Shown here: positions 6,042 through 16,240 of the stretch, piece by piece
Numbering within the stretch: position 1 is the stretch's first letter
Layout: every line of letters begins with the position of its first letter
The notes under the pieces: generated by a model
Told to the model about the DNA's origin: nothing
The model's database searches: none
Seen by the model: only the letters and a program-made list of their open reading frames with translations
Virus record (IMG/VR): IMGVR_UViG_3300045988_175774
Reading direction: 5' to 3' (one strand)
DNA: 46,533 nucleotides
From: a virus
Translations under genes and position numbers: made by a program

Positions 6042-6641
6042 AGTATGTTCTCCTTTTGAAATGTTTATTTGTTTTTCTTTATGTATATATTATATCAAAA
6101 AATTATAGAAAATTCAAAGGGGAAGACATCTTTCTAGCTATTGTTGAGCTTAATTAGTTTCCAAAAATTTTAAATGAGATAAGGCTCGACGTAAAAATGG
6201 AAGGCGGAAAATAAAAATGGCTTTTTTTACTATTGTATCATATATTTTATTAAAAATCAAGCGGAGAGAAGTGAGGTATGCCATAATTGCGGGATTCTAG
6301 AAAGCCGAATGGAAATTCCAAACATCTAGGAAAAAAGCCCATATAGGCGATCTTTGGGGTAGGTCGGATCCGAGTCCTTTGAACTCGGACCGCTGATTAT
6401 ATCACAGCCGCCGCGTTTTGTCAATAGGCAAATTATACAAATTTTTCATTATTTTTTTAGTAATATTGCACAAATAGTCATTTTTACCAAATTTTCATTA
6501 AAAAATAAGATTTTTTTGGTAAAAATGACTAAAATAAATAAAAATGTACAAAAAAATAGCCAAAAACCGCGTAATTTTTGGCTATTTTGTATAGAATATA
6601 GAATTTTATTGAATTTTTATAAGAAATTTTGGTTATTTTGT

Positions 6642-6680
6642 ATAGAATAGTCAGAAATGTAAATTTTCTGACTATTCTAT
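6642..6680. terminator. 16-bp perfect hairpin downstream of 6706..7107 (T-run on the plus side)
   Basis: atagaatagtcagaaa-tgtaaat-tttctgactattctat. Confidence 0.45.
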
Positions 6681-6705
6681 GTAATTTTTAGTTACCTCAG
6701 ACTGC

Positions 6706-7107
6706 TTACTCCTCTACAGTTTCCTCTTCTTCTTTTGCAAGAGAAAAGTAAGGAACTCTTTTTTCAATTGTCCTGACCACTTCTTCAGATTCGACAAGCT
6801 GTTTAAGAAGAGCAGATAACTTCTGAGGAGAAAGTTTGTTCATCTCAGAGTTTTCTTTAATCATGGTTGTAACTGTAACAGGTTTACCAAATAACTCCAG
6901 AGCCACAAGAATGAGCTTTTTAATTTCCTCATTTTCTTTCTGATTTTTGGTTTTTTTACCGCTGGAAGATTTTTTATTCAACAGCTCAATTTCATGGCTG
7001 AGAAAGTTAAGTGCTTCTTCTTTTGGTTCAAAGTCACTTTCTTCCAGAAAAGCTCTAATAGTTTCAAACCAATCTTTTTTTGTCATTTTGTCTTTCATCA
7101 TATTCAT
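6706..7107 (-). CDS. hypothetical protein, family A paralog 1 (winged-helix-like core, acidic C-terminus)
   Basis: Paralog of 8408..8827 with a shared block ELFGKPVTVTTMIKEN..KLS.QKLSALLK..VVRT.EKRVPYFSLAKEEEE. RBS aaagaaagaggt. Confidence 0.65.
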   Translation of the reverse strand: MNMMKDKMTKKDWFETIRAFLEESDFEPKEEALNFLSHEIELLNKKSSSGKKTKNQKENEEIKKLILVALELFGKPVTVTTMIKENSEMNKLSPQKLSALLKQLVESEEVVRTIEKRVPYFSLAKEEEETVEE

Positions 7108-7134
7108 TACCTCTTTCTTTCTTTTGATATATTT

Positions 7135-7163
7135 ATTATAGCATACTTTTTTATTTTTGTCAA
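7135..7163 (-). promoter_or_regulatory. consensus promoter TTGACA-N17-TATAAT for 6706..7107
   Basis: plus attata at 7135-7140 and tgtcaa at 7158-7163; the promoter-plus-leader cassette is duplicated at 7417..7445. Confidence 0.65.
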
Positions 7164-7194
7164 TTACTTTTTTATTTTTTTTCTTTTCTGGTGC

Positions 7195-7389
7195 TTACTT
7201 AATATAAGCACCAGCAATAGACTTAACAGAGCCATCCGCGTTGAAAAAGATAACATTATTTTGAATAACGTTGATACCTTTATTCTTTGCAAAATTTCTG
7301 AACACAAAGTCTGTATTCCAGAGTTTAATAAAATCAGCTTTTCTCATGTTTGCAAAACCTTTTGTGTAGTTCATTGTTCTCATAGTCAA
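7195..7389 (-). CDS. small hypothetical protein (64 aa)
   Basis: Own copy of the promoter/leader cassette (leader ..tatatcaaaagaaagaaagaggtattgactATG). Confidence 0.5.
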   Translation of the reverse strand: MTMRTMNYTKGFANMRKADFIKLWNTDFVFRNFAKNKGINVIQNNVIFFNADGSVKSIAGAYIK

Positions 7390-7416
7390 TACCTCTTTCT
7401 TTCTTTTGATATATTT

Positions 7417-7445
7417 ATTATAGCATACTTTTTTGCTTTTGTCAA
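7417..7445 (-). promoter_or_regulatory. consensus promoter TTGACA-N17-TATAAT for 7195..7389 (cassette copy 2)
   Basis: plus attata at 7417-7422 and tgtcaa at 7440-7445; about 60 nt is identical to 7109-7170. Confidence 0.65.
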
Positions 7446-7452
7446 TTACTTT

Positions 7453-7758
7453 TTAATAAAAATAACTGTCTAAAATCATACTTTCTACAATAAGATTCTT
7501 ATTATCATAATAAGCAAGGGCAATAGAAGTTGCGTAAGCGTCAAGCCCTGGACTTTCAAAAATACATTCAGAAGAGACACTAAACTTATAGTTTTTTTGC
7601 TCAGGATTTTTTTCTAAGAAATCAGAAATAGCTTCACTTAAACGCTTGCCATTTTCATTCATTTCCATATAATTCTCTCTTTCGGAATCCCAAAAACCAT
7701 CTTCTTCCAAAAAAATACAAAGATTACTCATTACGTCTTCGAATAAATTTTTTGCCAT
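7453..7758 (-). CDS. hypothetical acidic protein (101 aa)
   Basis: ORF with RBS; no recognisable motif. Confidence 0.55.
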   Translation of the reverse strand: MAKNLFEDVMSNLCIFLEEDGFWDSERENYMEMNENGKRLSEAISDFLEKNPEQKNYKFSVSSECIFESPGLDAYATSIALAYYDNKNLIVESMILDSYFY

Positions 7759-13656: not shown

Positions 13657-14110
13657 ATTATTTTTTTCTCCTTCCTTTTAACTATCTTTATAATACCATA
13701 TTAAAATTAGTTTATCAATCCCCTTTTATAAAAAATTATAAAAAAGGAAGATTTTTTTATCTTCCTTTTACTTTTGCTTTATTCTTGTTTTTTATTTTTA
13801 TCTTAATAATCTTAATAAATAGTTATTCTCATGCTCTTTTAAAAAAGCGTTAATTTCTTCTATCGTTTCAGCGTAAATCTCGCCTGTCTCAGTGTCTACT
13901 AACATCAATTTTTTACTTCCTAAAAATAATCCTAAATCTAACATATTTAAGCCCTCCATTAAGAAATTTTTACCAGATAACCGTTTGTATTTTTTTCCAC
14001 TGAAAAAATGTATTGATTATCTTTTAAGTATTTTTTTATAGTTTCAAATGCTTTTCGAGTTGTCAGTAACATTGTCATATTTCTTTACCTCTCTTTCATT
14101 TGATAATACT

Positions 14111-14139
14111 ATGATACTATATTTCCTTGCTTTTGTCAA
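14111..14139 (-). promoter_or_regulatory. promoter TTGACA-N17-TATCAT with the shared leader, upstream of a ~37-aa ORF (about 14080-13967)
   Basis: plus atgata at 14111-16 and tgtcaa at 14134-39; leader attatcaaatgaaagagaggtaaagaaatATG. Confidence 0.45.
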
Positions 14140-14195
14140 GCGTTTTAGGAAAATTTTTCAAAGATTTTTTTATGCGGATTTCCACTGAAAAAACC

Positions 14196-14265
14196 TGAAC
14201 TTAAGGAGATTGTAGGCGAACCGACTCCAGAACCGTCAAGTTCGGGAGTCCCTTTTTTATTTAAG
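14196..14265. terminator. GC-rich hairpin with T-runs on both strands (candidate bidirectional terminator)
   Basis: gactcc..ggagtc and gaactt..aagttc stems; plus side followed by cttttttattt, minus side followed by ttttttcag. Confidence 0.4.
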
Positions 14266-14574
14266 GAATGATTCTAAAGCCTTATAGCATAAATCAGCGT
14301 TTTCTTTATCTTTTATGCTAGTACCTTTAGAAAAGTCATTCATAGCGGCTGTTAGTAATTCCGATACTGAAATAAATTCAAATACCAGCTGTAAAGCCGC
14401 CAATTCATTAAGATTGACTTTTTTTCATCGGTTCTTTCCTATCTCCTTTTTAAATATTTTATTTTCTTTACATTATTACTATATCAAATTTTTTAATAAA
14501 ATTCAAAAAAGATACTTTATCTAAATAAGCAAAGAAAAGGGCTGAACCTATTCCGCCCTTTTCCCGCTTTTCCG

Positions 14575-14853
14575 CTATCCTATTATCTCTGCATCTGTAA
14601 TAATATCATCTGTCACGTTATCAGTCCCTAAAGAATCCATGTATAATTTAACTTTATCTTTTGCTTTAAAGCCATCTCCATAGAAACTCCAAACATGTTC
14701 ATAGTTATCCATGACAACCACTTCATTATTGAAAGAGCTAATCACTTTAGCTTCTCTTGTGTACTTAGTAAAGCTACCAAAACCGCAAATACTACTTAAA
14801 GTTGCACTTACTGCTAATCCTAAAATCACCTTTTTCACTATATCTAACTCCAA
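14575..14853 (-). CDS. small secreted protein (signal-peptide-like N-terminus)
   Basis: N-terminal hydrophobic segment VILGLAVSATLSSICGFG. Confidence 0.5.
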   Translation of the reverse strand: MELDIVKKVILGLAVSATLSSICGFGSFTKYTREAKVISSFNNEVVVMDNYEHVWSFYGDGFKAKDKVKLYMDSLGTDNVTDDIITDAEIIG

Positions 14854-15122
14854 CCTCTTTCTTTCTTAATCTTTTCGTATCTTTCTTTTGCTTCTTCTTC
14901 AATCTTCTTTTTGTTGTATACTCTAACTTTCATTCTGGTATATCCATCTCTTTTTAAACACCAACGTTCTGTTTTACGTTGTACTACTATCTTGTCGATA
15001 GCCCTTTGCTGTACCTCTTGCTTATGAGTGTTATAATATTTGATACTCTCAATTTCTAATAAAGTACTTATTGGTCTGTACTTATTGGTTACACTAAACA
15101 AAGTACATTGAATTGTTATCAT
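14844..15122 (-). CDS. small basic protein
   Basis: K/R-rich 92-aa ORF; promoter at 15148..15176. Confidence 0.5.
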   Translation of the reverse strand: MITIQCTLFSVTNKYRPISTLLEIESIKYYNTHKQEVQQRAIDKIVVQRKTERWCLKRDGYTRMKVRVYNKKKIEEEAKERYEKIKKERGWS

Positions 15123-15147
15123 CTTATCACCTCTCTTTTCAAGTATT

Positions 15148-15176
15148 ATTATACTACCTTATTATACCATTGTCAA
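15148..15176 (-). promoter_or_regulatory. consensus promoter TTGACA-N17-TATAAT for the 14844..15122 operon
   Basis: plus attata at 15148-53 and tgtcaa at 15171-76. Confidence 0.55.
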
Positions 15177-15329
15177 GCTTTTATTTACAGTATTTTTATT
15201 TATTTTAATGTATATTTACTCATGTTATTAAGACTAACAGTTAGTTTTAAATACATATTTATATCTTTTTTATAAATGGTAAAATAAAATATAATATAAA
15301 TATTATCATACTATTTTATTTAGTATTAT

Positions 15330-15585
15330 TTTATAAGCTTTTTATTATTATTATTATTATTATTATACTATCTTATCATAATTATTATAAAATATTATAG
15401 TGCCAATACTAACATTATTATCATTATATCTCTTCTTTATGTATAGTTATAATTGATAAGATTAACAATAATATAAGATAATGTTATTACACTAATTATA
15501 CTTATACTATGTATGTATTATATTGTTATAATATTACATTATATTATTATTATTATTATTATTATTATTATTATCTTTCTTTTGT
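15330..15585. repeat. (att)n microsatellites (about 15335-15366 and 15549-15582) inside a ~420-nt region of roughly 90% AT
   Basis: attattattattattatt runs read directly from the sequence. Confidence 0.8.
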
Positions 15586-16240
15586 CTTAAGCTTAACCTC
15601 TCATTATAGCACCTTTAGCTCATTCTGTCAATAGACATTTTACACAATTTTTTCTTTAAAACTTTGTGCAGATTGCCCATTGACATTTCTTGTCTATTGA
15701 CATTTTGTACAAAAATCAAATTATATTTTTGTATACTTTTACCATTGACAGGGTTTGTCAATAGACATAATGTACAAAATTTTCCATGTATTTTTGTACA
15801 ATTTTACCTATTGACAAGTTCATTTTAGGAAAATATCTTTGTACATTTTTTACAAAAATTTAGCCAAAAATTTGTGCATTTTGCCTATTGACAAGCTTCT
15901 CGGAGCGTTGCGAAAGTATACGCTCCGACGATAGATGGCAAGCTACCAATAGCCAATAAAAATTCTAATCTTCTTGCTTTATTTTAGTTATTTAAAGAAT
16001 TTATTTTATTAGTTTAACTCTTTCTCCTCTTTGCTTAAAATAATGTGTTCAAAACTCTTCTGAACAAAAAGCATATCCTCTTTGGAAAAAGATTTGAAAA
16101 ATTATTTGTTAGGCGGTATCTTGTTGCTTCTTGCTCAAAAGAAATGCTCAAACTACAGACCATACTTAAACATAATGCCGGGGTATATTAAAGGATTAAA
16201 ATTTTTTACTTTTATAAAAAGATAGTGTTCTCCACAATTC

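Follow-up and report, generated by a model that had tools for sequence, protein, structure and literature searches.

The islands of the early region and their motif

The window analysed here is the whole 46,533-nt stretch of viral DNA held as IMG/VR record IMGVR_UViG_3300045988_175774, with a GC content of 30%; it is part of the genome of a large siphophage. Encoded on it are a terminase (20326-22068), a portal protein and a 2,843-aa tape-measure protein, together with Yon-type virion genes as in the phage SPbeta (homologous to the YonB/YonD/YonG type). Between 4.9 and 17.8 kb the genes are small, lie on the minus strand and have their own promoter each, and the late genes follow on the plus strand from 17957. 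Four non-coding islands in the minus-strand part, numbered 1 to 4 in order of position, carry many copies of the heptamer TTGT(G/A)CA (TTGTRCA below), and this motif and the promoters next to it are the subject of this study.

On both strands of the window TTGTRCA has 41 matches, compared to 10.25 +/- 3.61 in dinucleotide shuffles, of which 0 of 100 reached 41. The islands (2,446 nt) hold 28 of these matches, or 25 distinct sites when three palindromic TTGTACAA are counted once each. This agrees with the initial annotation, which had reported at least 25 copies in the islands and quoted four example strings, all of which are present where it placed them. When the islands alone were shuffled, 1.05 +/- 1.14 matches were expected and the maximum in 2,000 shuffles was 6. 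The other 44 kb of the window has 13 matches, which is background density, and TTGTGCA/TGCACAA is the top 7-mer when the islands are compared with the rest (18 versus 0.52 expected). The window and island shuffles rule out chance or base composition as the cause of the excess. The copies are unevenly spread, with 2, 8, 10 and 8 matches in islands 1 to 4, so island 1 is motif-poor. Alignment of the 28 oriented sites extends the motif in the window to about 14 nt, tTTGTRCA-WWW-TGNC.

The islands had also been described as rich in promoters, and a scan of positions 5500-16600 gave 101 sigma70-like sites versus 52.6 +/- 6.5 after shuffling, with 15 perfect TTGACA-N17/18-TATAAT sites. Perfect cores of this kind stand at 6424-, 8025+, 8118-, 11332+, 11435-, 11504+, 11599- and 15631- (the sign gives the strand). 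The motif was said to lie 5-15 nt upstream of TTGACA; this narrows to a fixed gap, with TTGTRCA-N8-10-TTGAC found 9 times versus 0.01 expected. A repeated tattgaca is likewise real: YATTGACA occurs 15 times in the window versus 3.35 expected, and 7 of these are in 15626-15893. No tRNA genes were found in the spacers.

Island 1 (6042-6705) has two TTGTRCA sites, 6467-6473 and 6545-6551, both on the minus strand, two TTGGYTATTTTGTATAGAATA direct repeats and two large inverted repeats. Both inverted repeats had been noted before and do exist, one with arms at about 6476-6491 and 6516-6531 and the other as a stem at 6638-6684. A minus-strand promoter of the motif class (6331-6424 with its predicted transcript) reads TTGACA(6424-6419)-N17-TATAAT(6401-6396), with a degenerate TTGTATA at gap 9 and a TTGTGCA 43 nt upstream. 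Its predicted transcript has a GC hairpin at the start (6392-6365) and a small hairpin with U6 at the end (6348-6331), which suggests an RNA of about 60 nt from the predicted transcription start.

Island 2 (7759-8407) has eight matches, at 7842-, 7896+, 7967/7968 (a palindromic TTGTACAA), 8009+, 8197+, 8315+ and 8361+. The minus-strand promoter at 7805-7848, TTGTGCA(7848-7842)-N8-TTGACT(7833)-N17-TATAAT(7805), is the sole motif-class promoter of the window that drives a protein gene (7453-7758). A first pair of promoters stands face to face around one hairpin at 7967-8118. On the plus strand a distal TTGTACAA (7967-7974), TTTGGGAT (7985-7992) and a proximal TTGTGCA (8009-8015) precede, after N9, TTGACA (8025), N17 and TGgTATAAT (8048-8053); the hairpin is at 8063-8085 (-17.8 kcal/mol, z -5.6), and the minus strand has TTGACA (8118-8113), N17 and TATAAT (8095-8090) with degenerate motifs upstream. 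At 8350-8383 lies the minus-strand terminator of the gene at 8408-8827, one of two paralogs that we call family A; its loop is the TTGTGCA site 8361-8367, and a TTGACA (8378-8383) stands at gap 10 from this site.

Island 3 (10895-11721) has ten TTGTRCA sites, at 11048+, 11099-, 11139+, 11224-, 11265+, 11316+, 11455-, 11488+, 11634- and 11659-, and an inverted repeat of 45 nt (11048-11092 and 11186-11230), each arm of which starts with TTGTGCAAAGTGAYGAAATTTT. It holds two further face-to-face pairs. In the second pair (11316-11435) the plus strand reads TTGTGCA(11316)-N9-TTGACA(11332)-N18-TATAAT(11356-11361), followed by a hairpin at 11367-11388, and the minus strand reads TTGACA(11435)-N17-TATAAT(11407) with TTGTGCA (11461-11455) at gap 19. 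The third pair (11455-11599) begins with a reversed 17-bp composite, TGCACAAATTTTGGGAT, at 11455-11471. Its plus strand continues, 33 bp from start to start, with TTGTGCA (11488-11494), N9, TTGACA (11504), N17 and TATAAT (11527-11532); the hairpin is at 11538-11565, and the minus strand has TTGACA(11599)-N17-TATAAT(11571) with two TTGTGCAAAATG sites upstream (11640-11634 and 11665-11659). The inner part of this hairpin (11543-11560, between 11504+ and 11599-) is exactly inverted in one phage that is 98-99% identical (L002), and the hairpin loop is deleted in another (L001); the variation is a flip polymorphism of a palindromic segment.

Island 4 (15600-15960) is built of tandem units of about 65 bp (15624, 15689, 15754 and on), which contain TTGTRCA sites and YATTGACA or TGTCAATAG boxes in both orientations, in total 8 motif matches and 7 YATTGACA. 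A -10 box is present only at the minus-strand promoter 15631-15603. At TTGTGCA(15872)-N9-TTGACA(15888) a hairpin (15896-15934) follows directly, without a -10 box. Island 4 is non-coding as annotated, but the bounds given for it were too narrow: the true non-coding stretch runs from 15123 to 16484 (1.36 kb), with an extremely AT-rich part with (TTA)n runs (15123-15600) adjoining the island and three tandem repeats of 64-72 nt at 16241-16427.

Spacing of the motif and two classes of promoters

Relatives of the phage were fetched with the protein encoded at 17957-19117, which carries a sigma factor label and is called sigma-like below, as the probe (18 IMG/VR loci and 76 contigs of metagenome-assembled genomes, MAGs) and also with the DNA pattern TGCACAA-N1-3-TTYGGGAT. 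Spacings were counted in the window and about 90 loci, with each distinct sequence taken once. A shared layout emerges, in the order [TGCACAA-A(T/A)TTYGGGAT], about 14 nt, TTTGTGCA, 9 nt, TTGACA, 17 nt, (TG)TATAAT, about 8 nt and a GC-rich hairpin. It is common to 79 distinct units in dozens of IMG/VR loci, was found again in MAG contigs obtained with a different probe, and is kept in phages whose marker protein is only 45-75% identical and whose flanking sequence is not alignable. Within it, the 17-bp composite ATCCCGAAAT-TTGTGCA occurs in both orientations. The forward composite stands 9-10 bp upstream of the -35 box, in relatives at promoters of ordinary genes, and the reversed one serves the divergent partner promoter.

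The distance from TTGTRCA to TTGACW takes few values. A gap of 9 is found in 72 sequences from 34 loci, and the other gaps are 10 (29), 19-20 (33), 30-31 (21) and 42 (11), with almost none between. Sites that converge do so only at a start-to-start offset of 10 bp (41 cases of TTGTGCA-N3-TGCACAA), and sites that diverge have an offset of 23 (49) or 33 (27). The series of 9-10, 19-20, 30-31 and 42, at no fewer than 34 loci, is that of an upstream factor site held to one helical face: at steps of about 10.5 bp, neighbouring sites stay on the same side of the DNA, and so do the sites and the -35 hexamer. This quantised spacing is the strongest argument for a bound protein that would contact its neighbours and RNA polymerase. 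The guess in the initial annotation that the motif is an operator-like or activator-like site has thus gained in substance, from the helical spacing, from the 17-bp palindrome in relatives and from conservation at 45-75% marker identity.

The same geometry is hard to reconcile with a neutral repeat. Some of the island modules are recent paralogs, with 89-94% identity over 50-80 nt (D9, D19); 7982-8034 and 11461-11513, for example, are 89% identical. Many units also have no gene downstream, so the excess of the motif could be a by-product of promoter-terminator cassettes that were duplicated and lost their genes, the motif itself having no function. Between distant phages, however, conservation is limited to the motif and its spacing and the flanks cannot be aligned, the 10-bp steps recur in at least 34 loci, and the same palindrome occurs in an unrelated phage family. 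We already disfavour this explanation and consider it very improbable.

In several relatives the converging pair is a perfect palindrome, TTGTGCA-N3-TGCACAA, sometimes in tandem arrays free of promoters (L192, L175). Short repeats arrayed in variable orientation may also suggest replication origins or partition (centromere-like) loci, in which the motif would be an iteron for an initiator or a ParB/ParR-like protein and the promoters and hairpin RNAs would act in activating the origin or in priming. The 65-bp units of island 4 adjoin a 480-nt extremely AT-rich tract, and the 1.36-kb non-coding region around them could be an origin or terminus-related region; the short GC-rich RNAs of face-to-face promoters could prime both strands, and the palindromes are clustered at the termini of the 13-kb phages described below as well as arrayed in tandem in the two relatives. 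Against this, at least four islands in 10 kb, and many more in relatives, are too many for origins, phase with the -35 hexamer is the dominant regularity, relatives carry the motif in ordinary gene promoters with a Shine-Dalgarno sequence and ATG (SD+ATG), and no initiator or par gene is adjacent. As a general account of the motif we regard an origin or partition function as quite unlikely.

The promoters that carry the motif differ from those that do not. In the window, 12 consensus promoters stand directly before SD+ATG, all of them without the motif and typically with an A-rich upstream tract resembling an UP element, e.g. aaaaaagtg-TTGACA. The motif, intact or degenerate, is present at nine island promoters, eight of which are followed by a hairpin and not by an open reading frame (ORF). 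Among 952 distinct strong promoters compared across the family, motif-bearing ones have fewer A at -46..-38 (3.37 versus 4.89 in motif-less ones, p 4e-13) and a higher GC fraction at +5..+40 (0.52 versus 0.35, p 4e-21), and SD+ATG follows 26% of them versus 70% of the motif-less promoters. Antisense orientation to early genes is found for 43/91 motif promoters versus 68/778 motif-less ones (odds ratio 9.4, p 2e-18). By these sequence features, the motif marks a distinct second class of strong host-type promoters, mostly gene-less. The reading in the initial annotation is partly supported: the motif does behave like a protein site, but the sites in the window belong to this separate, mostly gene-less class and not to the promoters of early genes.

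The predicted hairpin stems are stable (-12 to -19 kcal/mol, z down to -5.6) and begin a few bases from the predicted start; 28 of the 49 units with a good -10 box have a hairpin of -15 kcal/mol or better there. A 5'-terminal stem-loop is a stabiliser of mRNA in Bacillota. In the hairpin transcripts we found no Rfam match at gathering thresholds, and at E <= 1 only chance-level matches to eukaryotic miRNAs and snoRNAs. Each of the three face-to-face pairs (8025+/8118-, 11332+/11435-, 11504+/11599-) shares one hairpin, and for each of these promoters the complement of the partner's -10 box forms a U-rich tract after the hairpin, one of which scored as terminator-like. With a hairpin and U-rich tract in this position, the products could be very short RNAs or read-through antisense RNAs.

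A motif fixed at about -51 to -45 might also be part of an extended promoter, read by the C-terminal domain of the RNA polymerase alpha subunit (alpha-CTD) or by the sigma-like protein, as a sigma factor or an appropriator. This position is that of the proximal/distal UP subsites as established in E. coli and B. subtilis, and motif promoters are without the A-tract that motif-less ones carry at the UP position. The gene of the sigma-like protein (17901-19117 with its promoter, plus strand) has a perfect consensus promoter without the motif, TTGACA(17901)-N17-TGgTATAAT, so it is probably expressed early by the host RNA polymerase and would be made first. In contrast, sites also occur 10, 20 and 30 bp further upstream, as 23/33-bp pairs and in the promoter-free arrays of L192 and L175, and island 4 has units with no -10 box at all. 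A simple UP element was rejected, since the motif has an invariant G and C, unlike UP elements, and A is depleted at -46..-38 of motif promoters; it is the motif-less promoters that carry AAAAAAGTG-type tracts upstream. The sigma assignment is also unsupported by Pfam, PDB or AlphaFold. Taken together, an extended promoter seems to us an unlikely explanation.

The sigma label itself comes only from PHROG 5767. We could not confirm it, as the protein has no Pfam match and no PDB match by sequence, profile or fold. Its AlphaFold model is poor (pLDDT 52.9) because the alignment is shallow, which makes a fold search meaningless, and a profile search for deeper homologs returned only proteins of about 74% identity and did not deepen the alignment. 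Towards its C-terminus, following a helical part, the protein carries a conserved Cys4 motif (CxxC...CxxC), and its relatives in public assemblies number more than 7,000. We regard it as a candidate regulator.

Known operators and related phages

The nearest described analogue of the motif is SPBRE, a repeated element of SPbeta that is present in about ten intergenic promoter regions and bound by the master repressor MrpR/YopR; it was discovered in silico before a single regulator was shown to use it as its operator (PMC10516654). As with SPBRE, a short conserved element is repeated here at intergenic promoters of a large siphophage with homologous virion genes. The two are not the same element, however, as both sequence and position differ. 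SPBRE, derived from six MrpR-bound SPbeta regions, is TATACATATT(A/T)TTTGTATTTG, i.e. TATACATATTWTTTGTATTTG, and lies at the -10 box or in the 5' untranslated region (between the -10 box and the ribosome-binding site), whereas TTGTRCA lies 9-42 bp upstream of the -35 box. The 15-bp SPBRE is absent from the islands, and the SPbeta regions examined have TTGTRCA only at background level (7 and 15 matches in 50 and 42 kb). No MrpR-like gene (YopR, tyrosine-recombinase fold) was found among the ORFs of the window, which is about a third of the genome.

Other known sites were tried and rejected. The Rex operator is TTGTGAA-N4-TTCACAA, 18 bp. It shares the outer pentamers TTGTG...CACAA with the motif palindrome and occurs in islands of a related phage, but it has AA/TT inner bases where the 17-bp palindrome of the relatives has CA/TG, and there are 0 Rex-type boxes in the window. 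The DnaA box has the consensus TTWTNCACA and the Spo0A box is TGTCGAA. Only sites followed by AAA fit a DnaA box; after TTGTRCA, A and T follow with about equal frequency, and it is the T before the motif that is conserved in addition. The CG of the Spo0A box corresponds to GC or AC in the motif, and TGTCGAA occurs only 5 times in the window, never overlapping TTGTRCA and once at the edge of island 3. A cre site was tested and rejected, and the motif does not match the parS consensus.

In geometry, the sites resemble those of class-I-type factors, phi29 p4-type control and the cooperative 17-bp operators of the lambda type. In phi29, p4 (with p6) is said to make the early/late switch, and host Spo0A boxes reportedly lie near early promoters. 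As in accounts of phi29, the sites here are upstream of strong sigmaA promoters, at the distance for contact with alpha-CTD, and some promoters are divergent; phi29 is comparable also in that a host global regulator reportedly has arrays of 7-bp boxes on the genome of a lytic phage. Contact of this type with alpha-CTD can have an activating effect at a weak promoter and a repressing effect at a strong one. The p4 site itself differs, being CTTTTT-N15-AAAATGTT rather than a 17-bp palindrome or half-sites offset by 23/33 bp. Operators of the lambda type are likewise 17-bp palindromes with a 3-bp centre and neighbours at whole helical turns, as for cooperative dimers, and SinR-type sites likewise use one heptamer in several arrangements (inverted, direct, single). 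Unlike both, the sites described here are upstream of the core promoter and not over it, and in the window phage they are mostly single strong half-sites. An operator array is a kind of element already known; as far as we found, novelty lies in the particular element, in its link to gene-less promoters with hairpins or in antisense orientation, and in its occurrence in unrelated phages.

The palindrome is not confined to this phage family. Five related IMG/VR contigs of about 13 kb (L222, L254, L298, L317 and L324; about 12-14 kb) have the same one in 2-5 clustered copies at one locus, at contig ends or in a direct terminal repeat. These are podophage-type genomes with a B-family DNA polymerase, a small terminase and a GC content of 34-50%, and they have no detectable protein in common with the early region of the window phage. 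No regulator gene is a consistent neighbour of the palindrome clusters in other contigs. Occurrence in unrelated phages makes it a serious rival possibility, itself a sub-case of the operator explanation, that the motif is read by a conserved host transcription factor that couples the phage programme to host physiology, and we consider this possible at somewhat below even odds. Such coupling would have company: in a cultured relative, Enterococcus phage VRE9_2 (L019, PP680568.1), positions 27960-37400 contain three perfect Rex-type boxes (TTGTGAA-N4-TTCACAA) and one near-perfect box, along with 5 cre-type boxes, three of which are TGTAAGCGCTTACA, mostly in non-coding stretches, which suggests that its early region may be under host redox and catabolite regulators. 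The Spo0A boxes reported for phi29 would be a precedent, and a cognate phage regulator was found neither in family A nor by gene profiling nor in a search of the window for helix-turn-helix (HTH) proteins. On the other side, the site fits no host operator consensus that we compared (Rex, cre, Spo0A box, parS, DnaA box), and the window has half-sites only.

Sister subclades whose marker is 58-63% identical have either the motif or other words, a pattern more readily accounted for by a phage factor that evolves fast, provided that the hosts are not different. The motif-less relatives L008, L009 and L012 have TGTAAAG/CTTTACA arrays and a recurrent GC-rich GACACACCNGGCGGCGTTG in the equivalent islands, and TTGTAAC is a further word in the same places among motif-less sister subclades. 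One phage has both kinds of word, with TTGTGCA palindromes interleaved with TTGTAAC/GTTACA repeats at 6000-6500 of L175. Swaps of words between subclades are what a changeable protein-DNA specificity would give. With the 13-kb phages sharing the palindrome, the host factor that the initial annotation offered as an alternative deserves no less weight than a regulator from the phage.

The family to which the phage belongs, gut siphophages of about 135 kb with SPbeta-type virion genes, is uncultured and very abundant. Contigs of 134-141 kb that are near-identical to the window are common in human gut assemblies, and public assemblies contain more than 7,000 proteins related to the marker. The closest cultured relatives are Enterococcus phages H1, EF1 and VRE9 and Geobacillus virus E3; the terminase is about 44% identical in H1 and VRE9_4, and no deposited phage has similar DNA over the region in near or distant search modes. 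The only named host lead is a 98%-identical protein on short contigs of a Megamonas funiformis assembly, which is a lead and not proof. Prophages gave no host, since all 76 matches in genome collections are MAG contigs with scattered taxonomic labels. SPbeta itself is temperate, and nothing in the window indicates lysogeny. In the literature searched we found no published account of regulation in this family, and a search with the motif string returned only primer noise.

Several other features of the window may be mentioned. The early region encodes an AAA/STAND-like ATPase (826-1947), two tandem SprT-like paralogs (1997-2503 and 2520-3023) and a protein with a microbial-type PARG domain (16485-17240), all of which are possible counter-defence genes. 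In a 1.16-kb non-coding, purine-rich stretch (4485-5645), 5-6 units of (A/T)TGTGAAAAAA stand in tandem at 5537-5593. A 34-nt direct repeat also occurs there twice (4519-4552 and 4639-4672), both times with a TGTCGAA (resembling a Spo0A box) and a TATAAT, and a long hairpin (about 4553-4620) follows the first copy. A distant relative of the family, phAss-1, recodes the TAG stop in late genes (PMC10607447); with the standard code the large ORFs of the window remain intact, so there is no evident recoding in it.

The proposed operator and its reader

The initial annotation named three possible readers of the motif, a 58-aa HTH ORF (3163-3339), a dual-winged-HTH protein (3831-4484) and family A, and none has gained specific support. 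The 58-aa ORF has only a sub-threshold winged-HTH match. The dual-winged-HTH protein has a PHROG match annotated ScpB (E 7e-8), and its Pfam HTH matches are weak and sub-threshold. The family A paralogs (6706-7107, minus strand, and 8408-8827) flank islands 1 and 2, and the fold model has a helical N-terminal part and a winged helix, with Zalpha, MarR, ArsR and BlaI as the closest folds. Motif density near family A genes is not above that near other early genes, and this family was rejected as the specific reader. The proteins have about 135 aa, with an N-terminal helical hairpin, a lysine-rich linker with a conserved TKxQxEN and an acidic tail. Zalpha domains are the closest folds of the winged helix, and family A genes flank islands also in L137 and L192.

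The observed enrichment, quantised geometry, dichotomy of promoter classes, orientation bias and conservation are probably best explained if TTGT(G/A)CA is the operator of a DNA-binding protein that gates promoters of the host sigmaA type; the binding is deduced from sequence patterns. The heptamer would be the strong half of a site for a sequence-specific protein, probably a dimer, which pairs or oligomerises along one face of the helix. The full site is the 17-bp palindrome TTGTGCA-N3-TGCACAA in relatives and mostly the asymmetric tTTGTRCA-WWW-TGNC in the window phage. The first site precedes the -35 hexamer by 9-10 bp or stands one to three turns of the helix farther away. Beyond it, typically at 23 or 33 bp, comes another site that faces the other way and is often fused to a YCGGGAT element to give ATCCCGAAAT-TTGTGCA. 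The sites belong to consensus promoters of the host sigmaA type that have no A-rich UP-like tract, start with a GC-rich hairpin in the predicted transcript and usually lead to no ORF. Such promoters often oppose early genes, as divergent pairs in relatives and as face-to-face pairs around one hairpin in the window. The bound protein may touch RNA polymerase at the -35 or alpha-CTD position and switch the motif promoters on or off as a group. In this way non-coding or antisense RNAs with hairpin caps, and in relatives some genes, would be timed against the immediate-early promoters without the motif. Within this explanation, the sign of control and whether the binder is encoded by phage or host are both roughly even.

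A number of points weigh against an operator. No protein that binds the motif was identified, and no Xre/Cro-type HTH protein is encoded in the window. If family A were a specific reader, its putative recognition helix, SNQK(L/I)SALL, would not be expected to be the same in motif-bearing and motif-less phages, as it is. Across 90 loci no gene family tracks motif density by presence or absence, a comparison that is weak because the loci are fragments of only 10-20 kb. The complete 17-bp palindrome occurs 0 times in the window, so that dimer binding here would need one strong and one weak half-site. The motif promoters have a perfect -35 box, spacer and extended -10 box and therefore need no activator, and a simple repressor would not usually have its sites upstream of -35. 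Duplication of 50-70-nt modules within the genome accounts for part of the copy number, and all transcription starts and RNAs are predictions.

If the motif is an ordinary operator of a phage repressor, it would be useful for annotating these genomes and not surprising. Together with its spacing rules, it amounts to a testable regulatory code with two classes of host-type promoters, one of them gated through a phased operator and yielding mostly non-coding or antisense RNAs with hairpin caps, and the palindrome shared with unrelated small phages is a route to a possibly new host regulator. A more specific picture, which we hold to be rather unlikely, is that bidirectional and face-to-face modules between early cassettes fire stable antisense RNAs with 5' hairpin caps and are switched as a group by a conserved host DNA-binding protein whose 17-bp operator is shared by the unrelated 13-kb gut phages. 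If true, a shared host-state sensor would be wired into the shut-off of early genes through convergent or antisense transcription, and gut Bacillota would have an undescribed global regulator with its operator.

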